Positions 19,469-64,000 of a stretch of 64,000 bases of DNA are shown piece by piece. Origin of the DNA: an uncultured Actinomycetota bacterium (lineage in GTDB: Bacteria > Actinomycetota > Actinomycetes > Mycobacteriales > SCTD01); NCBI GenBank assembly GCA_963781675.1, contig CAWAGF010000001.1, forward strand, positions 764,280 through 828,279, given 5' to 3'. The position numbers were made by a program, and so were the translations under genes. The first letter of the stretch is position 1. The number at the start of each line of letters is the position of its first letter. The notes below the pieces were generated by a model. It searched no databases and was not told the origin of the DNA. It worked only from the letters and a program-made list of their open reading frames with translations.

Positions 19469-20242
19469 GTGGGCCTGAGGGACGTCGCGTACGCCGCGTA
19501 CGAGCGCCGTCTGGCGCGCTCCCTCGAGCGCAGCGGCGCCCCCGTCCCGCGGCACGTCGGCGTCATCGTCGACGGCAACCGGCGGTGGGCCAAGGAGCTG
19601 GGCCTCGACGACCCGAACCAGGGCCACCGCGTCGGCGCGCGCAAGATCCGCGACCTGCTCGGCTGGTGCGACGACGCCGGCGTCGACCTGGTCACGCTGT
19701 GGCTGCTGTCCACCGACAACCTCAGCCGGCCCGAGCCCGAGCTCGCCCCGCTGCTGCGCATCATCGAGGGCCTGGTGAGCGACCTGGCCGGACCGCAGGG
19801 CCGCTGGACGATCCGCATCGTGGGCGCGCTGGACCTGCTGCCCGCCGAGACGGCCCGCGTCCTGAAGGAGGCCGCGTCCGGCACGGAGGGGCGCCCGGGC
19901 GTCGAGGTGAACGTCGCCGTCGGGTACGGCGGCCGCCGCGAGATCGCCGACGCGGTGCGGTCGATGCTGCAGGCGCACGCCGCCGAGGGCCGCACCCTCG
20001 AGGAGGTCGCCGACCTGCTCGACGTCGAGCACATCAGCGAGCACCTCTACACCCGCGGCCAGCCCGACCCCGACCTCGTGATCCGCACCAGCGGCGAGCA
20101 GCGGCTGTCGGGCTTCCTGCTCTGGCAGAGCGCGCACAGCGAGTTCTACTTCTGCGAGGCGTTCTGGCCCGACTTCCGGCGGGTGGACTTCCTGCGCGCG
20201 CTGCGGGCGTACGCCGCGCGCCAGCGCCGCTTCGGCACGTGA
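19469..20242 (+). CDS. uppS: cis-prenyltransferase (isoprenyl/undecaprenyl diphosphate synthase family)
   Basis: 257-aa ORF with IVDGNRRWA and RTSGEQRLSGFLLWQ motifs. It may be the short-chain Z-prenyl diphosphate synthase paralogue (position like Rv1086) rather than the true UppS. Confidence 0.8.
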   Translation: MGLRDVAYAAYERRLARSLERSGAPVPRHVGVIVDGNRRWAKELGLDDPNQGHRVGARKIRDLLGWCDDAGVDLVTLWLLSTDNLSRPEPELAPLLRIIEGLVSDLAGPQGRWTIRIVGALDLLPAETARVLKEAASGTEGRPGVEVNVAVGYGGRREIADAVRSMLQAHAAEGRTLEEVADLLDVEHISEHLYTRGQPDPDLVIRTSGEQRLSGFLLWQSAHSEFYFCEAFWPDFRRVDFLRALRAYAARQRRFGT

Positions 20243-21407
20243 ACCTCGTCCACGAGTACGTCCGGCTGGGGCTCGCCTTCGACCGGCTGGAGCGCGGCTT
20301 CGTCGACGCGTGGACCGGCCCCGCCGCCGTGCGCGCCGACGTCGAGTCCGGCCCGCTGCCGAGCGCGGCGGGCCTCGCCGCGCGGGCACGGGACCTGCTG
20401 CGCGAGCTCCCGTCCGCGGGTCTGTCGCCGGAGCGGACCGCGTTCCTGGAGGGGCAGCTGACCGGGCTGCACGCCAGCGGCCGGGTCATGGCCGGCGAGC
20501 AGATCGCCTACCTGGACCAGGTCGAGGCGTACTTCCAGGTCCGGCCGGCCCTCGAGGCGGTCGAGACGTACGAGGCCGCCCACCGGGCGCTGGACGACCT
20601 GCTGCCCGGCGACGGGCCGCTGCCCGAGCGCTACAACGCCTATCGCGACGGCGCGTCCGTGCCCGTCGACCGGCTGGCCGAGGCGGTCCGCTCCTGGTCG
20701 ACACTGCTGCGCGAGCGCACCCGCGCGCGCGTTCCCGCTGCCGGACGAGGAGGTCGTCGAGTACGAGGTCGTGTCCGACAAGCCGTGGGCCGGCTTCAAC
20801 TACTACCGCGGCGGCTTCCGCAGCACCGTCGCCATCAACGCCGACCTGCCGGTGAGCCTCGGGATCCTGCCGGCGCTCGTCGCGCACGAGAGCTATCCCG
20901 GCCACCACACCGAGCGGTGCCGCAAGCAGGCCGGTCACGCCGACCTGCCGGAGCTCGACCTCTGGCTGGTGAACACCCCCGAGAACGTGCTCGCCGAGGG
21001 GCTGGCCGACCTCGGCCTGCGGGGGCTGGACCTCGCCGACTGGGGACCGCTCGCCACGGAGCTCTACGCCGACCTCGGCATCCGGTACGACGGCGAGCGT
21101 GGTCACCGGATCGCCTCTGCTGCAGCCGATCTCGGCGCCGCGCAGCAGGACGCCGCGATCCTGCTCCACGACCGCGGGCGCCTCGCCGGAGCAGGCGCAG
21201 GAGCACCTCGAGCGCTGGGCGCTGCAGTCGCCGGCCAGGGCGGGCAAGGCGGTCGAGTTCCTCACCGACCCGCTGTGGCGGGCCTACATCTCGACCTACG
21301 TCGAGGGCGAGCGGCTGCTGTCGCGGTGGCTGGACGAGGGCGGGGAGTTCGTGCGGCTGCTCGACGAGCAGCTGACGCCGCGAGCGCTGGCTGCCGAGGT
21401 CGCCTGA
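20239..21407 (+). pseudogene. DUF885-like protein (HExxPGHH motif), frame broken twice
   Basis: GTG at 20239 overlaps the uppS stop. The protein reads through three frames: ...LLRERTRAR | FPLPDEEVVEYEVVSDKPWAGFNYY...AHESYPGHHTE...LLHDRG | SPEQAQEHLERWAL...AAEVA. The breaks are near 20722-20731 and 21175-21182. The 1169-nt span is 3n+2. Confidence 0.55.
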
Positions 21408-21517
21408 CGCTGCGGCGTGGCGCGCGCCCACGGGGTCGGGCGGGTCCTACCGTCCGTACCAGCGGCCGGCAGTCCGTCGGTCGCTCGGGAGGCCCGATGT
21501 GCGCACCTGCACGCGAA

Positions 21518-21536
21518 GGGGCCGGCGCCCGGCCCC
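21518..21536 (+). terminator. hairpin downstream of the DUF885-like gene
   Basis: GGGGCCGG-cgc-CCGGCCCC, a perfect 8-bp stem. Confidence 0.35.
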
Positions 21537-21581
21537 GCGGCCCGGTCCCGGTCTGACAGGCAGGCGCGCCGGGAGCTCCTC

Positions 21582-22863
21582 GTGAAGACCTTCGTGCTCG
21601 ACACGTCCGTCCTGCTGTCCGACCCGGGGGCGCTCGCCCGCTTCGACGAGCACGAGGTGGTGCTCCCGCTCGTCGTCGTCAGCGAGCTCGAGGGCAAGCG
21701 CGACCACCCCGAGCTCGGCTGGTTCGCCCGGCAGGCGCTGCGGGTCCTGGACGACCTGCGCGTCGCGCACGGCCGCCTCGACCAGCCGATCCCGATGGCG
21801 CAGGGCACCGTGCGGGTCGAGCTCAACCACGTCGACACCTCGACGCTGCCGTCCGGCATCCGGGGGACCGACGGCGACAGCCGCATCCTCGCCGTGGCCG
21901 CGAACCTCGCCGCCGAGGGCGCCGACGTCGTGCTCGTCTCGAAGGACCTGCCGCTGCGCGTGAAGGCCGCCTCGATCGGGCTCATGGCGCAGGAGTACCG
22001 CGCCGAGCTCGCCGCCTCCAGCGGCTGGACGGGCATGGCCGAGCTGGAGGTCGCGGGCAGCGACCTCGACCTGCTCTACGCCGACGGCCGGCTCGACCTG
22101 CGAGGAGGCGCGCGAGCTGCCGACCCACACCGGGCTGGTGCTGCTGTCCGAGCGGGGCAGCGGCCTCGGCCGGGTCGCCCCCGACAAGAGCGTGCGGCTG
22201 GTCCGCGGCGACCGCGACGCGTTCGGCGTGCACGGCCGCTCCGCCGAGCAGCGCATCGCCATCGACCTGCTGCTCGACCCGGAGATCGGGATCGTCTCGC
22301 TCGGCGGCCGGGCCGGCACCGGCAAGTCCGCCCTCGCCCTGTGCGCCGGTCTCGAGTCGGTCCTCGAGCGCCGCGCCCACAAGAAGATCGTGGTCTTCCG
22401 GCCGCTGTACGCCGTCGGCGGCCAGGAGCTCGGCTACCTCCCCGGCGACGCCGGCGAGAAGATGGGCCCCTGGGCGCAGGCGGTCTTCGACACGCTCGGC
22501 GCCCTGGTCGCGCCCGAGGTCGTCGAGGAGGTCATGGCGCGGGGCCTGCTCGAGGTCCTGCCCCTGACGCACATCCGCGGCCGCTCGCTGCACGACTCGT
22601 TCGTCATCGTCGACGAGGCGCAGTCGCTCGAGCGCGGCGTGCTGCTGACGGTGCTGTCGCGCCTCGGTCAGGGCTCGCGGGTCGTGCTGACGCATGACGT
22701 CGCCCAGCGCGACAACCTGCGCGTCGGCCGGCACGACGGCGTGGCCGCGGTCATCGAGGCGCTCAAGGGGCACCCGCTGTTCGCCCACGTCACGCTCACC
22801 CGCTCCGAGCGGTCGCCGATCGCCGCGCTGGTGACCGAGATGCTCGAGGACCTGCCGCTCTAG
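21582..22863 (+). pseudogene. phoH2: PhoH2 (N-terminal PIN domain fused to a PhoH ATPase), frame broken by a 1-nt insertion near 22101
   Basis: GTG at 21582 ([18 protein letters not shown]-like). After ...[10 protein letters not shown] the protein continues in the next frame as [15 protein letters not shown]... with Walker A GRAGTGKS and IVDEAQ. The 1282-nt span is 3n+1. Confidence 0.85.
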
Positions 22864-25792: not shown

Positions 25793-25807
25793 TCACGGCC
25801 GATCAGA

Positions 25808-25829
25808 GCGTTGAGCCAGATCTCAACGC
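25808..25829 (+). terminator. hairpin after the response regulator gene
   Basis: GCGTTGAG-ccagat-CTCAACGC, a perfect 8-bp stem, 16 nt after the stop. Confidence 0.4.
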
Positions 25830-25927
25830 CGGGTTGGTCACGACGTGTCAGGCGTCATAAGCGACATCCGGAGCACTGTGGCCGCAGACGAGGCGCAGAC
25901 TGCGCTCGCCCCGACCCGGGAGCCCCC

Positions 25928-28210
25928 ATGGCACTGCACGCGAAGCCCGCAGGAGGCGCCTCCCAGGCGCTGAAGCGCCGGACGGTGGTGGTGGCAGCAT
26001 CGGCGCTCGTCGCGAGCGTGGTGCCCATGGCGGTGGCCGCCACACCCGCTTTCGCGCAGCTGTCCGGCGCCATCTTCACCACCAACGCGGGCTGCAGCCA
26101 GGTCAACGGCAACCTCTACTCCAGCAAGCAGGACGTCTTCCTCAATGGTGGCCCGCACAGCGACAACGGCGGCGCGGGGCTCCCCTCGAACACCTACTTC
26201 GTCCAGGTCACCGACCCGAGCGGCGCAGCCGTGCTCGGAACGAGCGTGGGGTCCGGGGTCGAACGCCCGATCACGGTCGGGGAAGACGGCTCCTTCGCGA
26301 GCTGCTACCAGCTCTGGTCTCTTGTCGCGGACGCCGTTGGCGCGGAGGGCTACGCCACCACTCCCAACCAGGGCGGCGAGTACAAGGTCTGGGTCTCCAG
26401 CGTCAGCACGTTCCCGAACGACAGCACGAAGACGGACAACTTCAAGGTCGTCATCACTCCGCCGCCCACCGACGGCGGATTGCGCGGCATCTCGGTGTCC
26501 ACCAGCGCGACGAGCATCAAGAACGTCGCGAGTACCTGGACGCTCGACAAGTCCGTGACGCCGGGCACGGTCAACGGATGGGCCGGCGGCTCCACCACCG
26601 CGGCGACGTGGAAGGTGGTGGCTGACCGCACGGACACGCCGACCTGGAAGGTCTCTGGCGACGTCGTCGTGACGAACGCCGGCTCGGACCCGGTGACGGT
26701 CACCGTGGAGGACACCCTCGGCGACGCTGCCGCTACCCACCCCGTGCTCAACTGCGGCACTCCGGTCACCGGCACCTCGAACGTGTACGCCGTGCCCGGG
26801 ACGGGGGAGCTGACCTGCACCTTCACCGACACAGCCGTGACCTCGGACCCGGTGGAGAACACAGCACTGGTCTCCGTCATCACCGGTGGCGTGCCCGGTG
26901 GCGAGGACGTCGCTCCCGTCGTGAACGACCCGACGACCGATACAGCCAGCGGTGACCCGTCGATCACCGTTGACGACTCGCGAGCTGCTGCAGGCGCGCC
27001 GAACTCCGAAGCTGTCTCCGCTGACACGACCTGGACCTACGCCGAGACGTTCCCCTGCCCAGTCCCGTCCGCCGACGCGGTCTACGCGAACGGGGTGCTC
27101 ACGAGGACGGTCACGAACACCGCCGTCGGCGACTTCGCCAGCGCCACGACAGACCTGAGCGACACGGCGGACGTCACCGTCAACTGCTACGCGCTGATCG
27201 TCGACGACCCGGCCTCCACCAGCTGGAACCGGTCGTACGGGTGGGGCCTGACGAAGACCGTCGACAAGGCCACCCACACGCTGGCCCCGGGCGCTTCGGG
27301 GATCTCGAACTACACCGTCACGGCCACGCGCAGCACCACGGAGAACGGCTTCAACGTCGCCGGGACGGTCACCGTCACGAACCCCAGCCCGGAGGACGTG
27401 ACGGTCGCCGTCTCGGTCGACCTGCCGACGTCCGCGTGCAACGCGAACCTCCTCGTGCCGGCCGGTCAGTCCAAGACCTGCAGCTACTCGAGCTCCGTCC
27501 CCACGAAGGCCCCCGGCACCGTGACCGCGACCGTCACGATCAACGGACTCACCTTCACGGACGGCGACAGCTACACGTTCAGCGACGAGCCGACGACCAC
27601 GACTGGCAAGGCATCCGTCACGGTGACTGACACCTTCAACGGGTCCGTCATCCGCTCGAAGTCGGCTACGGACGGACTGGCGGAGCTCAAGTACAGCGAG
27701 ACGTTCAGCTGTTCTCGCAACGCGGCCGACTACACCGATGGCGCCTACAGCACCAGCACGACGAACGTGGCTGTCATCAGCGACCCCGCCCTTCAGGCCA
27801 GCAAGAGCGTGACGAAGAACTGCGTTGCCACCTGGAAGGCCGAGAGCGCGACGCCTCGTGGGCCGATCTGGCCGAAGCACGGCGGCAACTGGTTCATGTA
27901 CACGCCGTACACGGCGGGTCCGATCGACCTGCTCGCCGGCCAGACGTACAAGGCCGGCACGATCACGATGGCGCCGAGCGCGACCCCTGGCAAGACCGAC
28001 ATCACCATCACCTTCAACAACAACTACCGGCTGCGCAGCGGTCTGACGAACAACGTCAAGGTCCAGCCGATGGGCACCGCCCCGACCAGCTACACCCAGC
28101 CTGGGGCCTTCACGCAGAAGTTCACGAAGACCGGGTCCCCGATCACGGTGACCGTGCCGACCGCGGCCTTCTACGGCATCCACCTCGACGTCGAGCGGGC
28201 GATCTTCTAG
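25928..28210 (+). CDS. exported multi-domain beta-sandwich repeat protein (prealbumin/DUF11-like repeats)
   Basis: ATG at 25928. Signal peptide is RRTVVVAASALVASVVPMAVAATPAFA. The N-terminal domain has FTTNAGC...VFLNGGP...YFVQVTDPSG...GGEYKVWV. Several Thr/Val-rich repeats of the VTVTNPS..EDVTV type carry paired Cys. I saw no LPXTG or lipobox. Confidence 0.7.
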   Translation: MALHAKPAGGASQALKRRTVVVAASALVASVVPMAVAATPAFAQLSGAIFTTNAGCSQVNGNLYSSKQDVFLNGGPHSDNGGAGLPSNTYFVQVTDPSGAAVLGTSVGSGVERPITVGEDGSFASCYQLWSLVADAVGAEGYATTPNQGGEYKVWVSSVSTFPNDSTKTDNFKVVITPPPTDGGLRGISVSTSATSIKNVASTWTLDKSVTPGTVNGWAGGSTTAATWKVVADRTDTPTWKVSGDVVVTNAGSDPVTVTVEDTLGDAAATHPVLNCGTPVTGTSNVYAVPGTGELTCTFTDTAVTSDPVENTALVSVITGGVPGGEDVAPVVNDPTTDTASGDPSITVDDSRAAAGAPNSEAVSADTTWTYAETFPCPVPSADAVYANGVLTRTVTNTAVGDFASATTDLSDTADVTVNCYALIVDDPASTSWNRSYGWGLTKTVDKATHTLAPGASGISNYTVTATRSTTENGFNVAGTVTVTNPSPEDVTVAVSVDLPTSACNANLLVPAGQSKTCSYSSSVPTKAPGTVTATVTINGLTFTDGDSYTFSDEPTTTTGKASVTVTDTFNGSVIRSKSATDGLAELKYSETFSCSRNAADYTDGAYSTSTTNVAVISDPALQASKSVTKNCVATWKAESATPRGPIWPKHGGNWFMYTPYTAGPIDLLAGQTYKAGTITMAPSATPGKTDITITFNNNYRLRSGLTNNVKVQPMGTAPTSYTQPGAFTQKFTKTGSPITVTVPTAAFYGIHLDVERAIF

Positions 28211-30257: not shown

Positions 30258-31656
30258 CTACAGGCCGGGGCGGGTCATCTTCAGGACGTCGAGCGCCTCG
30301 TCGAGCTGCTGCTCCGTCAGCTTCCCGTCCTCGACGTAGCCGCCCTCGAGCACGACCTGACGGATCGTCTTCTTCTCCTTGAGCGACTGCTTGGCGACCT
30401 TCGCGGCGTTCTCGTAGCCGATGTACTTGTTCAGCGGCGTGACGATCGACGGGGAGGACTCGGCGAGCTCGCGGCAGCGCTCCTCGTCGGCCACGATGCC
30501 GTCGACCGTGCGGTCGGCGAGCAGCCGGGAGATGTTGGCCAGCAGGCGGATCGACTCGAGCAGGTTGCGCGCCATCACGGGCAGCATGACGTTGAGCTCG
30601 AAGTTGCCGGACGCGCCGGCGAAGGCGATCGCGGCGTCGTTGCCGATGACCTGCGCGGCAACCATGTGCGTCGCCTCCGGGATCACCGGGTTCACCTTGC
30701 CGGGCATGATCGAGGAGCCGGGCTGCAGGTCGGGCAGCTGGATCTCGCCGAGGCCGGCGCGCGGGCCGGAGCTCATCCAGCGCAGGTCGTTGCAGATCTT
30801 GTGCAGGCCGACGGCGATGGTCCGCAGCTGGCCGGACGCCTCGACGAGCCCGTCGCGGGCGCCCTGCGCCTCGAAGTGGTCGCGGGCCTCGGTCAGCGGC
30901 AGGCCGGTCGCCGAGGCGACCTCCGCGATGACGGCGGCGCTGAACCCGGGCGGGGTGTTGATGCCGGTGCCGACGGCGGTGCCTCCCAGCGGCAGCTCGG
31001 CCAGCCGGGGGAGCGACGCCTGGAGCCGCTCGATGCCGTACCGCACCTGCGCGGCGTAGCCGCCGAACTCCTGGCCGAGCGTCACCGGGGTGGCGTCCAT
31101 CAGGTGCGTGCGGCCGCTCTTCACGACCGTGGCCAGCTCGGAGGCCTTGCGCGTCAGGGAGTCGGCCAGGTGTGAGAGCGCCGGCACGAGGTCGTTCACG
31201 ACCGCCGAGGTCGCCGCGATGTGGATCGAGGACGGGAAGACGTCGTTGTGACGACTGCGAGGCGTTGACGTGGTCGTTCGGGTGCACGGGGCTGCCGAGC
31301 TTCTCCGTCGCGAGGGTCGCGAGGACCTCGTTGGTGTTCATGTTCGACGACGTGCCGGAGCCGGTCTGGAACACGTCCACCGGGAAGTGGTCGTCCCAGC
31401 GCCCGTCCGCGACCTCCGCCGCGGCGTCCTGGATCGCCTGCGCCATCGGCGCCTCGAGCACGCCGAGCGAGGCGTTCACCTTGGCGGCCGCGGCCTTGAT
31501 CCGGGCCAGCGCCTCGATGTGCGCGCGCTCCAGCCGCTGACCGCTGACCGGGAAGTTCTCGACGGCGCGCTGGGTCTGCGCGCGGTACTTCGCGTCGGCG
31601 GGCACCTGGACCTCGCCCATGCTGTCGTGCTCGGTGCGGAAGGCCGGAGACGTCAT
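30258..31656 (-). pseudogene. fumC: class II fumarate hydratase, frame broken by a 1-nt insertion near 31248-31252
   Basis: ATG at 31656 ([24 protein letters not shown]...[13 protein letters not shown]...[10 protein letters not shown]). It continues in the next frame as [12 protein letters not shown]...[11 protein letters not shown] (the fumarate lyase signature) to the stop at 30258. The 1399-nt span is 3n+1. Confidence 0.9.
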
Positions 31657-50799: not shown

Positions 50800-53700
50800 C
50801 GCCGGCCGGATGACCGTCGTCGTGGACGGCTTCCTCCAGGTGACGGGCGAGTACGCCTTCTCCTCGGTGACCTACGGCGCGGACGCGACAGGGGTCGCTC
50901 TGAGCGGCACCGGCGGCGAAGCCCTCGCCGGCCTGGTGCCCTTCGGCACCGGCATCGCAGGCGACGTCACCAGCATCGACCTCGCGATCCTCACCGACGG
51001 CAGCCAGGTCTGGCAGCTCGCCTCCGGGACGTTCACCGCCCCGACGCTCGTCGGCACAGGAGGCCAGCTCGCCCTCGACGAGGGCGAGCACGTCTTCACG
51101 GTCAGCCTCAACGCGCCCAGCCCGGGCGGGACGGCCCTGGACCTCTCGACCGATGGTCTCGTGGTGGGAGCGACGACCTTCGCCTACCCCGGGGCGGTCG
51201 CGCAGGTCTCCGTCACCGGCGTGACCGTCTCCGTCGGAGACTTCTTCTACGCCAAGGGCGACCTGACGGTGTCCCTCGGCGAGGGCCTCGTCGTCGACGT
51301 CAAGACCGACGGGGTCGCGTCGTCGACGGCTGTGAGCAGCGCGGTGGACGCCCTCACCGCCCGGGATGCGGCGGCCACGGCCGCCTTCGACGGGTCGACC
51401 CTGACCGGCGTCCGGGTGGCGACGCTGGACGTCCTCATCTCCGGTGCGAGCCTGTTCGCCGGCACCAACCCGCTCGGCCTCGACCTGTTCGAGAGCCCGC
51501 TGACGTCCGAGGAGCTGGCGGCAGAGGGCGTGGCCGGGCTGCTGGTCACCGACGCCGACCTCGGCCTGGTCCTGGCCCGCGCGAGCGATCAGGAGCTCGC
51601 CGACCTGCTGCCCCTGTTCAGCGCCGGCGCCGCGACCCTCGCCTCCGCGACTGCCGTGGGGCTGCCCGACGGCTACGGCCTGTCCGCGGCCGACATCGCC
51701 GTCCAGCTGAACAGCGCCGGCGCGCTCACCGGCGTCGACGGGGCCACCGCCTGGGTCGACTGGGCGTCCTCGTTCCCGGACGGCTACGAGCTGGGCGACC
51801 TGGTCCTCGACGCCTCGGACCCCGTCTTCGGCGGCAGCGCCCAGAACGCGTTCGTGGACCTCGGTGGCTTCGTGTCCCTCGCCGGCGCCTTCTCCTTCGA
51901 GCGCGGCGTCGTCATGGACGTCGAGGTGCTCGTCAGCGGCACCGACGACGACGGGCCCCGCTCCGTCACGGTCCGCACCACCACGATCGCCATCAGCGGG
52001 GCCAGCGTCTTCCTCGGCGCTCCCGGCACCTTCCTGGCCGGCAGCGAGGGCTGGGACTGCACCGACCGCTTCGCGGACACCGGCGCCGTGGGGCTGTGCG
52101 CGACGAACGTCACCCTCGGGCTCGTCCTCGCCAGCCGCGACCGACACCACGCTCGGGCTGCCGTCGTTCCTCGGCCTGGCCGGGACGATCGAGCACGTCA
52201 CCCCGATCGGCCTGCCCGAGGGCCTGGTGCTCCATCTCAGCGACGTCGCCTTCGTCGTCAACCGCGGCGGCCAGGTCGGCGGCACCCCCGGGTCCAGCGC
52301 CCACGTGGACTGGTCGGCGCTGCCCGACGGCGGCCTCGCCGTCGGGGACGTCACCCTCGACGCCGCGGACGCCGTGGTCGGCATGTTCGCGGACGCGGCC
52401 TACCTCGACCTCGACGGCTTCGTCTCCCTCGCCGGCTCGTTCTCCTTCGTGCAGGGAGAGACCCGCCAGGTGCAGGTCGTCGTCGACGGCGAGCCGCTGG
52501 GCGCCCTCACCACGGTGACCACCACCCTGGTCGGGATCGGCAGTGCGTACGTCTTCGCGGGAACGCCAGGCACGTTCGAGGCGGACGCCGAGGGCTGGGA
52601 CTGCGCGGACCTGGCCGAGGCGGGGGCGGTCGGTCTGTGCGCGACCGAGATCGACCTGGGGCTGGTGCTGGCCAGCGCGACGAGCGCCGGGCTCGGGCTG
52701 CCGTCCTTCCTGGCCCTGGCCGGGACGATCGGGGACTTCACCCCGGTCGGGCTGCCGGACGGCCTCGCGCTGGCCTTCCAGGGGTTGACGGTCACGGTCA
52801 ACCGCGGTGGGGCCGTGGCAGGCAGCGCGACGTCCACCGCGCACGTCGACTGGTCCGCAAGTCCGGTCGGCATCGGTGCCGTCACCATCGACGCGGCCGA
52901 CGCCGTCCTGGGGCTCACCGCCGACAGCGTGCTGCTCACGATCGGGGAGTTCCTCGCCGTACGAGGCAGCTTCGCCTTCGAGCAGGGCGGCACCGAGACC
53001 GTCACCCTGGGCATCGGCGGCCTGACGGAGCCGCAGCTGAGCGACTTCCAGAGCGCAGCCGGCCCGGGCTACGCCGACGGAGTGCTCTCCGGCGTCTCGG
53101 TCACCACGACCAAGATCACCATCGGGGCGGCGTCCGTCTTCGCCGGATCCTCGCCGGGCGAGTTCGCTGATGCCGAGCCCCTCGACTGCGACGCCCTGCC
53201 GGGCGCTGTCGGTGTCTGCGCGAGCGGCATCGACATCGGGATCGTGCTCGCGGGAGCGAGCGGCTCGCAGCCCGTAGCCGGCTGGACCCTGCCCGGCTTC
53301 GCGGCTGCCAAGGTGACGATCGACGACCTCGACCCCCTGGGCCTGCCGGAGGGCTTCGTCCTGGGCTTCGCGGGCATCGAGCTCTCGCTGAACCGCGGCG
53401 GAGTGCTGACGCAGGGCGCGACGGCCGTCGTCGGGTCCAGCGCGTGGATCGACTGGGAGGCGTCCTTCCCGGCGAGCGGCGGCCTGGAGCTCGGCTCCGG
53501 TGACAGCGGCGTGACCCTCGACATGTCCGACCCGGTGATCGCGGTCTCGGCCCGGGCGGTGCTCCTGAACCTCGGTGACTTCCTCGTCGTGCGGGGCAGC
53601 TTCTCGGTGGTCGAGGGTCGTACCGAGACGGTCGCCGTCCGGGTGGACGGCCTCGGCGCCGAGGAGGCGGGCTTCACCTCGGCCGCCGGCGACGCGTTCG

Positions 53701-56700
53701 ACGGCAGCACGCTGACCGTCGAGGTGGGCACCACGACGATCGGCATCGGCGACGCCACGGTCTTCGTCGGCTACCACCCGGGCGCGTTCTCGGACGACCC
53801 GGAGATCCCGCTGTCGTGCGCCGCCCTGGTGGCCGACGCCAGTCGGCTTCTGCGCCGAGCAGATCGACGTCGCCCTCGTGCTCGCCTCGCTCACCGACGC
53901 CGAGGCCGTCACCGGGTACGCCCTCCCCAGCTTCACCGCCGCGAAGATCAGCATCGGCGACGTCGACCTCCTCGGACTCCCGGACGAGCTCGAGCTCGAC
54001 CTCGAGGGCATCGCGCTGACGATCAACCGGGGCGGCGCCGTCACCAAGGGCACGACGCGCACGGCCGTAGCGGGCAGCAAGGCGTGGATCGACTGGGCGG
54101 CCTCCTTCGAGGGCGACGACGAGACGCCCGCGGGCCTCGACGTGGAGACCGGCTCCGGGACCGCCTACCTCGACCTGCGCGACCCCGTCCTGGGCGTGTC
54201 CGCCGACGCGGTGACCATCACCATCGACGCGTTCGTCAGCATCCGCGGCAGCTTCGCCTTCCAGCAGGGCGGGCTGGTCGACCTGGCCGTCCGCACGCCG
54301 AGCCTCACCGCGGACCAGATCGGCCGGCTCGCCGGCGACGTCACGGGCGCCACGGCGGTCGACGGCGGCCTGCTCGTCACGGGCGTCACGACGACGGCGA
54401 TCGGCATCGGCGGCGCGAACGTCTACGTCGGCTACGCGGCAGGCGGCTTCGACGACGACGGCGCCCCTGTGGACCCGGCCGAGTTCTACGGGCTCGAGGC
54501 GACCGGGATCGACTTCGGGCTGGTCGTCGCCAAGGTCGTCCCCTCCGGCCTGGCGGTCACGCACACGCTGCCGAGCTTCGTCGGCTTCGCCGCGACGCTG
54601 GACGAGCTCGGCTTCGTCGGCATCCCCAAGGACCTGGTCGAGATCGGCCTGTACGACCTGACGTTCGGCTACAACAGCGCGCGGCCCGTGACGGGCCCGG
54701 GGCTCGTGGGCGCCCTCGCCTTCGCGGACTGGTCCGCCTCGACCAGCTCCTCCGACCCCGACGGGGCCGCCGGGGGCATCGTCGTCGCGACCGACGGGGT
54801 CGGCGGCTCGGTCCTGCTCGACCACGACAACGCGATGGTCGGGGTCTCCGCGGAGCGCGCGGTGCTGGGCTTCGGCGACTTCGTCCGCATCAGCGGCTCC
54901 TTCTCCTTCCAGCGCGGCGCGCTCGAGGAGGTGACCGCCGGCGTCTCCGGGCTCAACCTCGGCCAGTACGAGGCCCTGCAGCTCGCGACGGTCAACAACG
55001 ACGTCACCGTCACCGGCAACGTCGTCGGTCCCGAGGTCTCGCGGGTGCGCATCCACGACCTGCTGGTCCGCACCACCCTCATCGGCCTCGACGACGCCGG
55101 CGTCTTCGTGGGCTACAACCCGGGCGGCTTCGACGACGACGAGGCCGTGGACTGCGCGGCTCTCGACGCCGACCTGGACGCGCGCGGCGCCTTCGGCCTC
55201 TGCCTCGACGACATCTCGCTCGGCCTCGTGCTCGCGCAGGCGCTGCCGAACCAGATCGGGGCGCTCGGCGCACCGAAGTACACGGCGCTCCGCGCGAACC
55301 TCGGCGTGTTCGACGCCGCCGTGAACCTGCTCGGCCTCCCGGACTTCTCCGAGTGGCTCACCCTCCAGCTGAAGGGGCTGGAGCTGACCGTGAACCGCGG
55401 CAAGCTCACCGCCGCGCCCTTGTCCGCCACCTGGATCGACTGGGCCGACAGCTTCCCCGGCACCGGCGGCGGTCCGGTCGGCCTGCCGGTCCCGACGGGC
55501 GGCGAGGACGTGCTCATCGACTTCGCCAGCCCGGTGGTCGGCGTCTCCGCCGACTACGCGCGGCTGACCATCAGCGACTTCGTGCACGTCTCCGGCGGGT
55601 TCGCGTTCCGGGCGGGCGGTCTGGAGGAGGTCGACGTCGACGTGCGCGGACTGACCGGCCTCACGCAGCTGCGCGACGTCGAGGTCAAGACGACGACCTT
55701 CGGCATCAGCAACGGCTCCGTCTTCGTCGGCTACGCGCCCGGTGGCATCGACCTCGGCGAGGACGACGAGGAGACGGCGGAGCGCGAGGACCTGCTGCTG
55801 ACCGAGGACGAGCTCGGCGAGGACGCCACGGGCCTGCTGCTCGTCGACGTCGACCTCGGCATCGTCTTCGCGACGCCCACCAAGCCGTACCCGCTGGGCA
55901 TCACCAAGCTGCCGACCTTCATGGCGCTCAACGCGCACGTCGGCGACTTCGTCCCGGTCGGCCTCGAGCTGTCCTTCGTCGAGCTGCAGCTGCACGACCT
56001 CGGCCTGCTCCTCAACCGCGGTGGTCCGGCCTCCGGCACGGGGATCAACGGCCAGGCCACCATCGACTGGGGCGGCAGCTTCGACGGCGGCTACCTCATC
56101 CCGACCAGCACCACCGACGCCGAGCCGATGCGCATCGACGTGCGGGGGCCGGTCGTGGGGCTGTCGGCCGGCCGCGCGGTCGTCTCCCTCAGCGACTTCG
56201 TCCACGTCTCGGGCGGCTTCTCCTTCATCAAGGGCGAGACGCTCAGCGTCGACATCAACCTCAACGCGGGCGTGCTCGGCGCCGCCGCCATCTCGACGAT
56301 CCTGACCGCGTCCAGCACGGCATGTACCGCAACGCCGACGGGACCGTGCTGTTCGCGGTGCCGGTGGACACCATCCAGATCGGCGTCCGCAACGCCTCGA
56401 TCTTCCTGGGCTACAACCCGACCGACGGGGCGACCTTCGACCTGGGTGCGGACGACCCGGACACCCTGGACGTCGACGAGAGCCTCGTGCTGGGCCGTGA
56501 GGACCTGTCGGACGACGCCGTCGGCCTGCTCGCCAGCGACCTCGACCTCGGCATCGTGCTGTCGACGATCGTGCCGGACAAGCGGCTCAACCTGCTCGGC
56601 ACGCTGCCCCGCTTCGTGACGGTCAGCGGATCGGTCGAGGAGTTCACGGCCCTCGGCTTCGAGGACTTCGTGACGCTGGACGTGCGCCGGGCGCGCGTCG

Positions 56701-58300
56701 AGGTCAACTACGCCGGCAAGTGGGGCAGCTTCGCGACCGCCTCGACCGGCCCGGCCATCGACTGGACCACCCAGACCTACGACGACGACAACGACGACAG
56801 CACCGCCGAGGTGGCCGGCGGGTACGGCATCGCCACCGGCGGCAGCAACGACGACGTCGTCGTCAAGATGTCCAACTACGTCCTCGGCGGCGGCGCCGAC
56901 CTGCTCGTGCTGGGCATCGGAGAGTTCGTGCACCTGCGCGGCTCGGCGTACTTCGAGATGGGCCAGACCCTCACCGTGCCGCTGGCCGGCGTCGTGGACG
57001 ACGCGGCGCTGGCCGCGCTCGGACCGGACGTGGCGAGGTTCGCAGGGGTGAACGAGAAGGAGCTGCGGTTCCTCACCTTCGGCGGCCAGGACCTCTACGC
57101 GTTCATCGGCGTCGGCGGCCCGCACTGGCTCACCGAGGACGAGAGCGACCTGAGCAGCGACGTCCGCTTCGAGTGCGACCCGGGGGCCGCCGGCTGCGTC
57201 CCGGCGACCGACGACGACCCCGGCAGCTGCGGGCCGGACAGCAAGCCCCTTGACGGCTTCGCCGAGGCCGAGAGCAACCCGCTGTGCCGCGCGATGGTCA
57301 ACCCGAACGCCGTGGGCATCGCGGTCTCCGACCTCGACTTCGCCTTCGCCATGGGCACCCCGACGCTGCAGGTCGACCCGACGCGCTACTACACGCTGCG
57401 CGCCCGGATCGACGACGCCGGCCTCATCGGGCTCGAGAGCGAGGGCCTGGTCGCCCGTCTGCGCGGAGTGACCGTCGAGGTGAACGTCGCGACCCCGACG
57501 GTCGGGGCCTTCCCGCTGCTGCCGGTCATCGACTGGAAGGCGCACGCCCTCGCGAGCGGCTGCGACCAGGCGGCCGTCGACGCCCTGCTCGGCGGCGGCA
57601 CCCCCTCGGGCGACTGCGAGCCGTTCGGCGTCCGCACCGGCCGCGTCGTCGCCGGCCAGGACGTGCGGGAGTACTTCCTCTACGACGGCCTCTACGTCCG
57701 CGCGGCGGTCCGCCTGGCGCAGATCGACCTCTTCGGCGTCCTCGTCGCACGGGGTTCGCTCGCCCTGGTGCTCGGTCCGGTCACGGACGTGGTCCTCACC
57801 GACGGCACGCCGGTGACCGGGGTGACCACGATGACGATCGGGGGGTCGGACCTCTACGGCTTCCTCGGCTCGGACGGCCCGCACTGGGTCGAGGACCCCG
57901 ACACCGAGGAGATCCTGTACACCGACGACGGCACCGTCGACGGGGAGGTCTGCCTCGCCGGGAGCGCCGGCTGCACCCTCGTGCGGAACCCCGACGCGGT
58001 GGGCCTCGCCCTGAGCAAGATCGACTTCGGGGTCTTCATCGGCGCCAAGCTCGACCCGCAGGCACCGGCCGCCTACGTCGCCGCGAAGGTCAGCTTCGAC
58101 GGCCTCGACCTGGTGGGCGTGCCCGGCGTCGTCGTCACCGGAATGCTGGCCCTGAGCCTGAACCTCGGCTTCGCCCTCGGCGGCAGCACGAGCGCCTCGA
58201 TCGCGGGCATCAGCTTCGGCGCGAGCTTCCCGTACACCGGCAGCGCGACCGACGGCGTGGACGGCTTCCTGCTCGACACGGGCAACCCGGACGCGCCGCT
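50800..58300 (+). repeat. about 11 tandem, diverged 180-260 aa protein modules of unrecognised type
   Basis: The recurring order is DFV..GSFSF..G, then TTT.IGI..A.VF.G..PG.F, then AVGLCA..IDLGLVLA, then LPSF.A.....I......GLP, then ..NRGG, then IDW..SF, then LD..DPV.GVSA. The NRGG-type markers fall near 51708, 52260, 52800, 53392, 54025, 54670, 55393, 56013, 56703, 57480 and 58150. Confidence 0.65.
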
Positions 58301-60099
58301 CCTGCTGGACTACGAGAGCACCTTCCTGCAGGTGCAGCTGACCGGGGCGATCGAGATCCGCGCCGGACCAGAGGACGACGCCAAGCCGCTCGTGCGCATC
58401 GACGGGATCTTCTTCCTCGGCGTCGGCCTCGACGCCGGTGCGGAGTCGTTCCGCCTCCTCGCCCTCGGCGAGATGACCGTCGGCCCGGACATCGGCTCCG
58501 ACGACCCGCTGCTCAGCATCGGCGCGGTGGGCGTGCTGGTCCTCGACCAGGACGGCGTGGCGGGTGACTTCACCGTCAACCTGCAGGCCGGTGGACCGCT
58601 GTCCGACGTGCTCTCCCTCTCCGTCTACGCCCGCGTCGTGTTCAACACCGCCGGCAAGGACATGACCGTCGAGCTCCCGGAGGAGCTCTCCGGCTACCTG
58701 ACCGACCTGGGCACCTCGTCCGTCAAGGGCGTGAGCAACCCGGGCAGGCTCGCCGACGCGCTGATCGACCGCCTGGAGCCCTGTGGCGACCTGCTCTGCT
58801 ACACGATCAGCGGCCGGTCGCCGAACCTCGTGTCCGGTACCGGCCCGGACGACGCGACGATCGCCTGGCTGCTCGGCGACGGCCCGAAGCCCGATCTCAG
58901 CGGACAGGACCTCGAGCCCTACCTCGTCGCCGTCGTGGACGGGAGGCTCACCCTCGTCGGCTTCGCCTCCGCGACCGTCTTCGGCGCGATCCGCATCGCC
59001 GACAGCGAGTTCGAGCTCATCGCGGACCTCCAGTTCGAGCTCGGGACCAGCCGCGACGTCGGCCTCATGGTCGATGTCAGCGCCATCGCCGAGATCTCCT
59101 CGGCAGGCTTCTACCTGCAGGCCACCGTCGACCTCGAGGCCAACCTGCTCTCGGTCTTCGACCTGGACGTGTCCGGCACCCTGACGATCGACACCCGCGG
59201 CAGCTCGACCGCCTTCGAGCTCGGCCTGAGCGGCTCGGTCAACGTCCTCAACGTCGTCCGCCTGAACGCGACGATCGCCATCAAGGTCGGCGGCGCGCTC
59301 GGCGAGGACGCCTGGTACTTCGGCGCGACGGTCGAGGGCAGCTTCGGCCCGCTGAGCCTGAAGGGCGGCGGCTTCGTCTCCTCGTGGGGCAGCTTCTCCT
59401 TCGACCTGTCCGGCAGCGTCGACCTGTCGATCGCCGGGACGGGCATCGAGGGCGGCCTGTCCGCGCACCTCTCCTACTGCGCCCGAGTGGACGGTGCGTC
59501 CGCCTACGACCGCCGCTGCGCGGACGACATCCGGACCGACATCCTCGACGGCACGGTGGACCAGGCCAAGCTCGACCTGATCCACGACTTCCAGACCGAG
59601 GGCGGCCCGCTGAACGCCGGCGGTCGCACGTTCGTCGTCGCGCTGGACGGCCGTGTCGCCGTGAAGATCATCGGCATCACGCTGGCCGGCGTCGGCGTCG
59701 GCGTCGAGGCAGCAGGCGTGCTCGGCGGGCTGGTCCAGGTCCGGGCGACCTTCACCGTCGAGACCATCTTCGGCGACATCAGCCGCACCGTGACCATCGC
59801 GACGTTCCAGCTGCCGACGTCGCTGGTGAACGGCAGGCCGAAGCCGCCCGTGCTCGCGACCGTCGACCCCGCCGACGCGACGGTCCTGCTGCTGAACGTG
59901 GGTGACCGCGCCGGCAACCGGGAGGTCCGGCCGCTGGAGGAGGACGAGGACTACACGATCACGCAGTCCGGTGGGGTCGTCACCGTCTCCGCCTTCGGGT
60001 GGACCGAGTCGTTCACCGGCATCACCCACATCTCCGGTGACTTCGGGAGCGGCCGGGACAGCCTCACGGTCTTCCCGTCCGTCACCGCCAGCGTCACCG

Positions 60100-60300
60100 C
60101 CACGGGTGGCGCCGGCGATGACCGCCTGGCGCACGCCGGCAGCGGCGTCGCCGACCTCAGCGGCGGCGACGGCGACGACGTCCTCATCGGCGGCCTGGGC
60201 GCGGACACGCTGCGCGGCGGGGCCGGTGACGACTTCCTCGACGGCGGCCCCGGCGTCGACCTGATGTACGGCGGTGAGGGGGACGACACCTTCTTCGGCT
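60100..60300 (+). other. RTX-like Gly/Asp calcium-binding repeats in the giant protein
   Basis: GGAGDDRLAHAGSGVADLSGGDGDDVLIGGLGADTLRGGAGDDFLDGGPGVDLMYGGEGDDTFFG. Looser GGxGxD / G.D.D repeats recur at 49980-50100 and 61500-62600. Confidence 0.65.
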
Positions 60301-62689
60301 TCGGCCACCAGATGGCCGGCGAGACCCTGGACCCGGGCGAGGGCTACGACCGCATGGAGGTCGTGGGCCGCGACACCGGCGAGACGATCACGCTGGACGC
60401 CGTCGGCACCGACCTGCAGCTGGACTACGACGGCGCGGGCACCACGCTGTCGCCGTTGGTGCTCACCGGCATCGACGAGCTCCTGCTCCGCCTGAGCGGC
60501 AGCGACGCGCTCACCGTGCAGGGCGACGTCCGGACGCAGCTCGCGGTCCTGACCGTCACCTCAGCGCCCTACCGCAGCCAGCAGGTCGCGACCCAGGCAG
60601 ACGTGGACGCGAAGCTCGCGGCCAAGGTCGGCGACGTGATCGCCACCGCCCTGGCCAGCAACGACAGCATCACGCTCGTGCTCGACGACGCGGCCGTCGC
60701 CGACACGGTCGTGATCAGCTCGGCGATGAGCGCGGCACCCAAGACCTTCTCCCAGGGCGACGGCGTGTTCGGCCTCGCGAGCACGAACGGCAGGTCCGTC
60801 GCGACGACCACCGTCCGGTGGACGAGCGCGGGCTTCCTGTTCACGATCGCGAACACCGGCCTCACCGCGGACGACCACGACCTGCTCACGATCCGCACCG
60901 GTGGCGGCACCGACGACGTCGCCGTGCGCAGCCTGCTGACCGACCTCGCCCTCGACCTCGGCGACGGGGACGACGTCGTCGTCGTCGGCAGCGCTGCCGA
61001 CTGCTCCGCCGGCACCTGCACCAACGCCGCCGGAACGGTCGACCGCGTCCTCGCGCCGCTCAGGGTCACCGCCGGCGCCGGCACCGACCGCCTGGACGTC
61101 GAGGACACGACGGACACGACCGGCGACGCGCTGCTGGTGACCAGCGGCCTGGTGTCCGGCCTGGACATGCACCCGACCGGCATCCGCTACAGCGGCCTCG
61201 AGCAGCTCGACGTCCGCACCGGCAGCGGCGCCGACCTCGTCAGCGTCCGGTCCACGTCGGCCGTCACGACGATCGAGAGCCGCGGGGGCGACGACGTCTT
61301 CCACGTCTCGTCCGACGCACCAGCCGATCTCGGCAGCCTGGACGGCATCGCCTTCGCGCTGACGCTCCTCGGCGGCAACGGCGCTCGACACCGTGCACCT
61401 CAGCGACCGCGGCGACAGCACGGGCGACACCGGCACCCAGACGTCCACGACCCTGACCGGCTTCAGCCCGGCGGTCATCACCTACACCGCGTTCGAGACC
61501 CTCGACCTCGACCTCGGCAGCGGGGCGGACCACCTCACCCTCACCTTCACCGCGCCGGACCTCATCACGGTCCACACCGGGGACGGCGCGGACGTCGTGA
61601 CGCTCACGGCCGCTCCGGTCGGCGCGCGCGTCACCCTCGAGGCCGGCGGCGGCGACGACCGCGTCGAGGTCCTGGCCAGCGCGGGGACCCTGCTCGTCGA
61701 CGGGGGGCAGGGCTCCGACAGCACCGACCTCCACCTGCTCGGGACCGGCGACGCGCGCACCGATGTCCGGGACACCGGGTCGATCGGCACGAACCGCCTG
61801 GTGCTGTGGGGCTCCGCGTCCGACGACACCCTGCTGCTGCGCCGCGACCTCGTCGCGCTGCTGAACGACCCGCTGCCCAGCGGTGCCTTCGCGAGCGCCG
61901 AGCTGGTGACCTACGACGACGGCATCGACAGCCTCGTGCTGAACACCCTGGCCGGGAACGACCACGTCTCCTTCGACGACGTCTCCGCGGCCACCACCGT
62001 CAACGGCGGCGCCGGCGACGACGTCTTCCAGGTCGGCCAGCTCTACAGCGACGCCTGCGCCACCGCCGGCAGCGCGAACCCCTGCTTCGACCTGCGCTTC
62101 GTCCCGCCGACGCTGGTGGACACGACGCAGGGCATGGTGTCCAACGGCATCAGCCAGGCGACCACCCTCAACGGCGGCGAGGGCGCCGACCTGTTCCTGG
62201 TCTTCCGGAACAAGGCCGTCCTCACGCTGAACGGCGAGAACGGCGACGACACCTTCGTCATCCGCACGTTCCTCGAGGAGGACTCGGAGACGCAGCTCAC
62301 CGCGGGCGACGGCGCCGACAGCATCTCGTACGTCATGAACGCGCCGGTCAGCATCAACGGCGGTGACGGCTACGACCGGCTGTTCGTCATCGGCACCGAG
62401 GCCGACGACACGTTCGTCGTCACCTCCGCGGGCGTCTACGGCGCCGGTCGCTACGTCAGCTTCGTCGGGATCGAGCTGCTGGTCGTCGACGCGGCGGAGG
62501 GCGACGACCGCATCACGGTGCTGTCGACCGCACCGGGCCTCGACGTCCAGGTCTTCGGCGGCCTCGGCAGCGACGTCGTCGACGTCGGAGGTGACGCCGC
62601 GCCGGTCGCCGCCGACGACCTCAACGGGCACAGCGGGCTGGTCGTGCACTCCGTCGAGTCAGGCAGCGTCCTCGCAGGTCGACCCGTCG

Positions 62690-64000
62690 ACGGCATCGCG
62701 GTGGAGGTGGCGGACGACGACGCCCCCGCCGTCCTGCTCACGCCCTCCGGCGGCTCGACCGTCGTCCGCGAGGGCTCGACGGCGACCGACTCGTACACCG
62801 TCGTGCTGACGCGGGCGCCGAGCACGGACGTGCGGGTGGCCGTCACGACCGCGGAGCTCACGCCGGACCAGGCCGCGGCCGGGATGCGCGGCGTCGAGCT
62901 CTCCCTGGACGGCCGGACCTGGTCGTCCGCGGTCGAGCTCCTCTTCACCGCCGGCACCTGGAGCACCGAGCGCACCGTGCTGGTCCGGGCCGTGCAGGAC
63001 GCGGCGGCCGAGGGCGCCGAGACCACGGTCCTGCAGCACACGGTCCGCGGCCAGCTCGACGGAGCGGTCGCCTCGGCGGGCGGCAGCAGCCTGACCGTCA
63101 GCGGCACGCCCTTCGGCGACCTCGCCCTCGTCGGGCGCCAGGTCGTGATCACGGCCGGTCCCGGAGCGGGCCAGGTGCAGACCATCACCGGCCGGCAGGG
63201 CAGCACCCTCGTGCTCGGCGGCGTCTGGACGGCGCTGCCCGGTGCCGGCAGCACCTGGCAGGTCCGCGGCATCGGCGAGTACGACGAGCTGGCCCTGAAC
63301 GTGCTGCCCGTGCTGGTCGTGGACGACGACGTGTCGGAGCTGGTGCTCACGCCCAGCGACGGCACGACGGTCGTGGGCGAGAAGGGTCTGCGGGACAGCT
63401 ACACCGTGGAGCTGAGCGCCCCCCGCGCCGTCCCGACGGTCATCACCGTCGCCGCGTCGGCCGACGTCTGCCTGTCCACCGACGCGAGCGCTGCCGCCAC
63501 GGCCGACTGCGCCGGCCTGCGGCTGGTCCTGCCCGCCGGCGCCGGCCCGGTCACGGTGTGGGTGACGGCCAAGGACGACGCGCTCGTCGAGAGCTTCGAG
63601 CAGGTCCGCCTCGACCACGCCGTCGACGGCGTCGCTGCCGGCTTCCTCTCCGTGCTCGTCACCGACGACGACGTGGCCGACGTCCTCGTCGTCGAGTCCG
63701 ACGGCTCCACCCAGGTGGCGGAGGGCGGCCGCACCGACGGCTACACCGCCGTCCTCACCAAGGACCCGGGCGGCACCGTCACGGTGACGGCCACGGCGGT
63801 CGCCACCACGACCCAGTACGTGTCGCCCACGGGCGTGCGGACGACCCGCACGGAGCAGCAGGTCGAGCTGAGCCTGGACGGCCTCGCCTGGTCGTCGTCC
63901 GTCGCCCTCGTCTTCACCAGCGCCAACTGGCAGGCCGGCATCCCGGTGCAGGTGCGGGCCGTGCAGGACGGCGTCGTCGACGGCAGCGTCCTGCAGGCCT
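62690..64000 (+). other. Calx-beta-like units in the giant protein
   Basis: Units are bounded by V.V.DDD (VEVADDDAPAVLLTPSGGSTVVREG..DSYTVVLTRAP; VLVVDDDVSELVLTPSDGTTVVGEKG..DSYTVELSAP; VLVTDDDVADVLVVESDGSTQVAEGG..DGYTAVLTKDP). Confidence 0.6.

Follow-up and report, generated by a model that had tools for sequence, protein, structure and literature searches.

Introduction

What kind of protein is built from long tandem repeats that resemble no described domain, and what could such repeats be for? The question is raised by a stretch of 64,000 nucleotides (nt), here called the window, from contig CAWAGF010000001.1 of an uncultured actinomycetotal bacterium. A giant gene on the plus strand of the window encodes an array of repeated modules in its central part. 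A first inspection of the letters and their open reading frames (ORFs), the sequence-only reading, had described about 11 tandem modules of 180-260 aa at 50800-58300, which could not be assigned to a known domain family. Giant bacterial surface proteins consist mostly of unannotated sequence, a large part of which can be assigned here to a single definable domain with a length of about 200 aa.

Based on the results presented below, the module represents a domain family that is new, broad and well defined, and that belongs to a familiar general type, the repeat modules of giant surface proteins. Our preferred explanation, to which we assign a probability of roughly 60%, is that the protein is secreted or located on the cell surface and that its modules fuse into one rigid beta-sheet rod, which would act as a stalk.

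Extent and copies of the repeat array

A single module (residues 1101-1290 of the stitched protein) was used as BLASTP query against the frame-corrected protein. Nine further tandem copies were found, spanning 51506-57876, with E-values ranging from 8e-55 for the next copy to 3e-6 for the tenth copy. A hidden Markov model (HMM) of these ten copies added partial copies at 51152-51463 (independent E-value, iE, 3.7e-8) and 57972-58289 (iE 8.7e-12). The family HMM, which was built from 546 modules of homologues and of the window itself, placed the outer copies at 51020-51358 and 57984-58343 (iE 3.6e-8 and 2.5e-13) and yielded a faint remnant at 50801-50866. The array extends on the plus strand from about 50800/51020 to 58343 and consists of ten full copies, one near-full copy and one partial copy (Table 1). 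The copies are 180-264 aa in length and share 20-57% identity in pairwise comparison. The number and size of modules given by the sequence-only reading are in line with these values, and its coordinates proved to be nearly exact.

The conserved order of landmarks that had been reported for each module is also seen in the alignment of the copies. The NRGG landmark is located at 52260, 52800, 53391, 54025 and 56014, in agreement with the earlier positions, and appears as NYAG at 56706. Spacings of 540, 591, 634 and 692 nt between these landmarks reproduce the reported growth of the period towards the 3' end, and DNA repeat families recur at a spacing of 531-699 nt. Tandem Repeats Finder did not detect the module period, as the divergence between the copies is too high. 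The similarity of early modules that had been claimed at the DNA level is present locally, with 81% identity over 96 nt (ungapped) between modules 2 and 3, but does not extend to the full modules. The global identity of this pair is 73%, just above the values of codon-shuffled controls (mean 68%, maximum 72%). Between modules, the global DNA identity ranges from 64 to 73% compared to 68% after codon shuffling, which is uninformative at the G + C content of the window of about 74%.

Comparison with known families

Segments of the window were compared with Pfam-A 2025 and NCBIfam r20, and no match to the module was obtained at E ≤ 0.1. The same holds for eight homologues (P0005, P0006, P0010, P0011, P0013, P0028, P0039 and P0171), for which these libraries gave no match on the module, matches to the repeats-in-toxin (RTX) motif aside. 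A set of 21 three-module stretches yielded no consistent match in Pfam at E ≤ 1. Scattered weak EF-hand matches were the only ones observed, which fits the presence of DxDxDG loops in these sequences. No Big_ or Ig-like family of Pfam matched either the window segments or the three-module stretches, and the YD-repeat motif PF05593 of RHS/YD-repeat shells was absent from the three-module stretches at E ≤ 1. In PDB, 0 sequences were matched by a profile search at E ≤ 10. With a single module as query, Foldseek found nothing significant in PDB (best E 0.21), and a search of BFVD gave nothing significant. The view that the modules are not assignable to a known family is in line with these results, since Pfam-A, NCBIfam, the PDB sequence profiles and Foldseek against PDB contained no confident match to a described repeat family.

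Distribution of the module family

A full HMMER profile scan with the ten window modules against 1.84 billion representative proteins (clusters) identified 736 proteins at E ≤ 1e-3, 442 at E ≤ 1e-10 and 170 at E ≤ 1e-30. Many of the matches listed are giants, with lengths of up to 7,902 aa and up to 27 matched stretches. The names given to them by the sources are limited to hypothetical, calcium-binding protein and LEPR-XLL domain-containing protein. The 341 full-length modules analysed range from 149 to 320 aa, with a median of 200 aa.

Carriers of the module belong to the phyla Actinomycetota, Verrucomicrobiota, Planctomycetota, Pseudomonadota, Chlorobiota and others. They include Opitutales, Akkermansiaceae and other Verrucomicrobiota, Pseudacidovorax, Ramlibacter, Chlorobium, Planctomycetota including Pirellulaceae, Anaerolineaceae, Nitrospirota, Humibacillus and one metagenome-assembled genome (MAG) of Halobacteriales. 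The member from a Chlorobium MAG contains at least 11 modules.

The family became visible because the full profile scan was performed; a word-indexed protein search was nearly blind to it. In the latter, a stretch of 825 aa retrieved 3 proteins and the alignment of 50 modules retrieved 5 short fragments. The 825-aa protein query found no relative among GTDB species representatives. With a formal definition of the family, tens of kilobases could be annotated in each of many genomes or across them.

Structure and topology of the module

Module 4 was modelled with AlphaFold2 from a 50-sequence module alignment, resulting in a mean predicted local distance difference test score (pLDDT) of 90.2 and a predicted template modelling score (pTM) of 0.78. 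For modules 5-7, modelled together from 21 three-module rows, the values are 84.7 and 0.83, respectively. The predicted module contains six long antiparallel strands (S1-S6) of 12-24 residues each. Strands 3 and 4 are separated by a small excursion, which contains the I-D-W/F motif and two short hairpins, and a variable, partly helical insert is located between strands 5 and 6.

Mean-field direct coupling analysis (DCA) was performed on the 546 modules aligned to the family HMM, with an effective sequence number of 516. It showed the antiparallel ladders S1/S2, S2/S3, S3/S4, S4/S5 and S5/S6 as well as two short hairpins. The strongest coupling connects the aromatic residue of IDW/F to a conserved Ala of strand 2, and the motif contacts S1/S2. 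Since S3 pairs with S4, the IDW region leaves the sheet as an excursion.

Contacts between neighbours cannot be revealed by an alignment of single modules. For this reason 389 rows of consecutive modules were built, each of which starts at S4 of a module and ends at S3 of its successor. The ladder S6(n)/S1(n+1), formed by the last strand of a module and the first strand of the following one, ranks 2nd, 3rd and 6th among all couplings, indicating one continuous sheet through the array. The high pTM of the three-module model, which points to a fixed geometry between modules, agrees with this result.

These findings bear on a beads-on-a-string arrangement, in which independent globular beta-domains would be joined by flexible linkers as in the Ig-like repeats of RTX adhesins. 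The context of a giant RTX-type protein, the variable acidic linkers between modules and the confident folding of a single module on its own are consistent with such an arrangement. However, couplings between modules are among the strongest of all and the three-module pTM is high, the Ig-like families of Pfam are unmatched and the strands are far longer than Ig-like ones. We therefore regard separate beads as very unlikely.

Ig-like (BIg) extender arrays in giant RTX adhesins of the MpIBP, LapA and SiiE type are composed of modules of about 100 aa and are presumed to serve as rigid spacers. The array of the window resembles them in being a tandem beta-rich module situated mid-way in a very large acidic RTX-bearing protein, with putative calcium-type loops at the module junctions in relatives of the window protein and a presumed role as rigid spacer. 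In contrast, its module is about 200 aa in length, lacks the Ig-like sandwich, forms a sheet that continues from module to module and, in this lineage, has Cys pairs in place of the putative calcium loops. One sheet through all repeats is unusual for an extender region and raises the question of whether its hydrophobic side is buried or forms a functional cleft.

Resemblance to membrane barrels

Foldseek comparison of the three-module model with PDB gave TonB-dependent transporters, porins and SlpA as best matches, with E-values down to 2e-5 and probabilities up to 0.94. The model of one module matched FadL, gasdermin and pore forms of MACPF proteins at non-significant E-values. Taken at face value, such matches would suit a membrane beta-barrel or pore former, whose long amphipathic hairpins insert into the outer membrane of the organism itself or into a target membrane. 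The template modelling (TM) score of the three-module matches is 0.14-0.18 with a root-mean-square deviation above 19 Å, values which point to a shared local meander instead of a shared fold or closed barrel. The up-and-down meander of long strands, with short turns at one edge and long loops at the other, is common to the array and to outer-membrane beta-barrels, which account for the only significant Foldseek signal. The lack of global superposition, the unclosed sheet, the strongly acidic sequence and strands longer than transmembrane beta-strands set the array apart from them. The host, moreover, is probably a Frankiales-like actinomycete, since its GlpX is 91% identical to that of a Frankiales MAG, and such a host is not known to possess an outer membrane of the type in which these barrels reside. 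A role as membrane barrel is highly improbable on these grounds.

Comparison with hydrophobic-groove proteins

Hydrophobic and polar columns alternate in the long strands. Columns that are paired in the ladders show correlated hydropathy in S1/S2, S2/S3 and S3/S4 (r 0.61-0.96). For S4-S6 the ladder register is uncertain by ±1, and the attempt to show one hydrophobic face over all six strands failed there.

An amphipathic sheet of this kind might curl into a cleft that carries lipid or other hydrophobic cargo, or that docks to or inserts into the envelope of a partner. Repeating beta-groove or AsmA-like proteins, e.g. VPS13, ATG2, TamB and YhdP, are built from units of five strands and a loop that crosses the groove. 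As in these proteins, units of antiparallel strands merge into a very long sheet, possibly with one hydrophobic side, and the sheet is continuous across the repeat units. The unit found here differs, however, as it consists of six long strands and an excursion, and its context is that of a probably extracellular RTX-type protein instead of an inter-membrane bridge. Furthermore, covariation places the IDW excursion on S1/S2, so that the hydrophobic side may be partly capped.

Neither sequence nor structure comparison indicated a relationship to these proteins. The AsmA, TamB (DUF490) and Chorein families of Pfam were unmatched by the three-module stretches at E ≤ 1. An hhalign comparison with TamB of Escherichia coli gave a probability of 0.2%, in a weak test with a single-sequence template. 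No TamB, VPS13, ATG2 or Lpt structure was present among the top 50 Foldseek matches in PDB.

A continuous hydrophobic cleft in an extended beta-sheet has been described for a giant protein that is transferred from cell to cell, namely Cag_663 of Chlorobium chlorochromatii (10.64898/2026.03.19.712371). Its N-terminal 13,000 aa are predicted to form this sheet and have no known homologue. For giant proteins of Omnitrophota, tubules of the antiparallel beta-helix type are predicted that carry exterior helices at regular intervals, likewise without known relatives (10.1101/2023.11.21.568195). Compared by their published descriptions, both of which are predictions, these proteins share with the window protein unannotated regions for which a very long and uninterrupted sheet of antiparallel strands is predicted, with protrusions or exterior helices in regular succession, and they are reported to match no known structure. 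Neither Cag_663 nor the Omnitrophota giants are among the best 150 of the 736 profile matches, the longest of which has 7,902 aa. The family member from the Chlorobium MAG is in favour of such a cleft in the array. On the other hand, a search seeded with a 537-aa piece of this member did not retrieve C. chlorochromatii proteins.

Taking both sides into account, a hydrophobic-groove conduit, although the main alternative to the stalk, is unlikely. Somewhat less probable still is its more specific form, in which the array would be an extracellular counterpart of bridge-like lipid-transfer proteins, with a cleft of tens of nanometres for cargo passing between cells or for docking into the envelope of a partner. 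To the same low degree we would expect such a cleft architecture to be common to giants of many phyla, possibly including the transferred symbiosis proteins of Chlorobium.

Proposed role of the array

In the rod-like stalk that we favour, the array would occupy the middle of a very acidic giant protein (> 5,090 aa) that is secreted or anchored to the surface. The net charge of the module region is -223 over 2,438 aa. Pairing of strand 6 of each module with strand 1 of the next makes the array one continuous up-and-down sheet of about 70 long strands, as opposed to beads on a string. Its length would be about 30-35 nm, provided that the strands run perpendicular to the long axis and that each of them contributes 0.48 nm. 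Such a rigid sheet would serve as a stalk or scaffold that keeps the distal RTX and beta-helix parts at a distance from the cell. It would thereby perform the task of the Ig-like extender arrays in RTX adhesins by means of a different architecture.

The turn between modules is a candidate point of stabilisation. A DxDxDG calcium-loop motif is present in the inter-module loop of 82 of the 341 homologous modules (24%), but in none of the junction loops of the window's own modules. Five of the ten full window modules (2, 3, 4, 5 and 7) have a Cys pair, with one residue in the inter-module loop and the other in strand 1. This pair occurs in 16 of the 341 modules overall, and Cys is otherwise nearly absent (0.06%). 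Calcium may staple the turn in most lineages, and a disulfide probably takes its place in the window protein.

Several points weigh against this interpretation. Calcium stapling is argued from the relatives, as the sequence of the window protein contains no DxDxDG loops. The Foldseek resemblance is local and leads to outer-membrane barrels, so that the models provide no functional anchor from a solved structure. The length and curvature of the rod and the cover of the hydrophobic side of its sheet are conjectural. The C-terminus, with the distal domain and any secretion signal, lies beyond the window, and export of an RTX-type protein from an actinomycete host is not readily explained. The four frameshifts described in the next section could be genuine. 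No experimental datum was found for any member of the family. Two or three modules should be expressible, which makes the array a tractable target for structural biology.

Integrity of the giant gene

The stitched product of the giant gene, joined from five pieces, comprises at least 5,090 codons with 0 stop codons and is still open at the end of the window. Expressed as coordinate modulo 3, the reading frame is 2 at 48719-52141, 0 at 52146-53840, 1 at 53842-56316, 0 at 56322-61382 and 1 at 61384-63999. The profile of the G + C content at third codon positions (GC3) shows a single coding region on the plus strand, which begins at about 48.7 kb and continues through the rest of the window. GC3 values in the coding frame are 0.91-1.00 on both sides of every frame switch. 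Long ORFs on the minus strand are high-GC artefacts, since the strand-aware profile calls the plus strand throughout the gene.

Three of the four frame switches are located inside the repeat array (Table 1). At each switch the protein sequence carries on in the other frame when both frames are read across. In every case, correction of a single base brings the sequence back into alignment with the adjacent module or with orthologues. With the homologue P0151 (4,353 aa), one BLASTP high-scoring segment pair crosses three of the junctions.

The gene for class II fumarase, fumC (about 30258-31560, minus strand), is split by a frameshift within its conserved SQSS(ND) motif at about 31200-31340, so that its N-terminal part and its Lyase_1/FumaraseC_C part are read in different frames. 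Further frame changes on the same strand are visible in the GC3 profile at about 6000, 7200, 20200-22100 and 35220; these could be more indel errors or simply adjacent genes.

We consider it very likely that the four frameshifts are consensus errors of the assembly. This assessment is based on the same kind of break in a housekeeping gene of the same window, on the undiminished codon bias on both sides of the switches and on the lack of accumulated stop codons. The organism itself probably carries an intact gene. A pseudogene that was inactivated recently, with four real frameshifts and the array as a relic, would agree with four frame changes within 15 kb and with the fragmentary public gene calls for this contig (P0001, 913 aa; P0068, 1,468 aa). 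The corrected frame, however, is free of stops over 5,090 codons and keeps its codon bias, and all four changes are single-base indels of the type that also hit fumC. In addition, the relative P0151 is affected in the same way in a comparable assembly: the name of its contig follows the pattern used by a long-read assembler, and the protein ends in a frameshift-like tail. Recent inactivation is improbable in view of these observations, and even if true it would leave the identity of the module unchanged. Programmed frameshifting was rejected, as the four sites have no common motif, the direction of the shift is not uniform (three insertions, one deletion) and fumC is broken as well.

The fragmentary gene calls are explained by single-base indels that break the giant gene. 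In the public gene calls of this contig, such indels split genes of this kind and hide them from protein databases.

Age of the duplications

The modules are homologous tandem units and therefore arose by duplication, as the sequence-only reading had proposed. A recent expansion, by contrast, is not supported for most of the array. Modules 4-7 correspond one to one to the four modules of a Humibacillus fragment (P0002) with 46-58% identity, and modules 8-10 correspond to modules of a second Humibacillus fragment (P0016) with 54-73% identity. For modules 4-10, the identity between orthologues (46-73%) exceeds that between paralogues in the same protein (28-45%). These positional orthologues indicate that the array largely predates the split of these genera. 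Only modules 1-3 are nearest to one another (44-56%), and a younger expansion at the 5' end of the array is possible.

The later modules had also been described as progressively more degenerate. They are divergent, but there is no sign of decay, as the 3' modules are the best conserved ones between genera (54-73%).

Features outside the array and neighbouring observations

From the N-terminus onwards, the protein features a hydrophobic segment, an HExxHxxGxxH motif, a Pro/Ala-rich linker, about 12 modules, an RTX block and more GGxGxD-rich sequence. Coordinates are summarised in Table 1.

Table 1 Features of the giant gene and its repeat array in the window
Feature	Position	Strand	Remarks
Giant gene	48719..63999	+	5' end inside the window, 3' end beyond it
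N-terminal hydrophobic segment	48812..48880	+	Candidate signal or anchor; preceded by an Arg-rich stretch; read from the translation
HELGHVLGLGH, metzincin-type zinc-binding motif	49163..49195	+	Weak Peptidase_M10 match, E 0.003, below the Pfam cut-off
Faint module-hairpin remnant VVVDGFLQVTGEYAF	50801..50866	+	Possibly degenerate start of the array; family HMM iE 0.0067; DNA repeat family D20; weak evidence
Module 0, near-full, divergent	51020..51463	+	Family HMM positions 40-164, iE 3.6e-8; ten-copy HMM iE 3.7e-8
Module 1	51467..52018	+	BLASTP, ten-copy HMM
Module 2	52019..52562	+	Frameshift near 52136 inside; Cys pair
Frameshift 1	52133..52139 (near 52136)	+	One extra C in gccagcCgcg; removal restores LAS-ATDTTLGLPSF, parallel to module 3
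Module 3	52566..53150	+	Cys pair; 57% identical to module 2
Module 4	53154..53774	+	Cys pair; copy used for the single-module model
Module 5	53775..54435	+	Frameshift at 53841 inside; Cys pair
Frameshift 2	53841	+	One extra A; removal restores ...LVADAVGFCAEQ, as in Humibacillus P0002
Module 6	54439..55116	+	Ten-copy HMM
Module 7	55117..55734	+	Ten-copy HMM; Cys pair
Module 8	55765..56414	+	Frameshift near 56320 inside
Frameshift 3	56317..56322 (near 56320)	+	One-base deletion (acg gc- atg)
Module 9	56454..57113	+	Orthologue in P0016, 62% identical
Module 10	57252..57872	+	Orthologue in P0016, 73% identical
Module 11, partial (first half only)	57984..58343	+	Family HMM positions 4-118, iE 2.5e-13
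RTX nonapeptide block, six GGxGxD repeats	60105..60293	+	PF00353 E 6.6e-14, 3 stretches
Frameshift 4	61383..61387 (near 61386)	+	One extra C; removal restores GGNGADTVHL

A motif of the HELGHVLGLGH type is found at the same place in the homologues P0151, P0005 and P0011, the latter two of which also have a weak Peptidase_M10 match. In the window protein the motif is followed by a possible Met-turn (SGLMGS; context 48884-49260). Just before it, LTPVELLVASA (48884-48916) resembles LEPR-XLL by eye. The LEPR-XLL model NF012209 of NCBIfam gave no match in the window protein. The family member P0028 contains the LEPR-XLL motif (E 2.8e-4, above the cut-off), and a member from Ramlibacter is named after it by UniRef.

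Judged by its sequence, the whole protein carries the GGxGxDxUx nonapeptide repeats that characterise RTX proteins. GGxGxD-like motifs are also present outside the canonical block, at 49982-50600 and 61371-62557 (plus strand). These motifs suggest that the array is flanked on both sides by more repeats of a calcium-binding or beta-roll-like type in degenerate form. The interval from partial module 11 to the RTX block (58344-60100, plus strand) encodes about 590 beta-rich residues, which align with P0151 and have no library match.

The locus of P0151 (L081 10001-29591; ENA ERZ25039483 contig_384) has an Arg-rich, frameshift-like tail, after which ORFs of 799, 906 and 482 aa follow. The 906-aa ORF encodes RTX sequence, and the 482-aa ORF a right-handed beta-helix of the Beta_helix/NosD type. 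P0151 and these ORFs probably form a single gene with about 6,500 codons that was broken by indels, and the ORFs hint at the content past the 3' end of the window.

Elsewhere in the window, the G + C content drops to 0.68 between 26000 and 28000, where the coding-strand signal is mixed and an 806-aa ORF (25793-28210) is without Pfam match. Just upstream of the giant gene, two overlapping ORFs on the plus strand (47243-47485 and 47482-47736) resemble by eye a YefM/Phd-type antitoxin followed by a YoeB-type toxin. This pair is situated in a stretch of lower G + C content (0.69).

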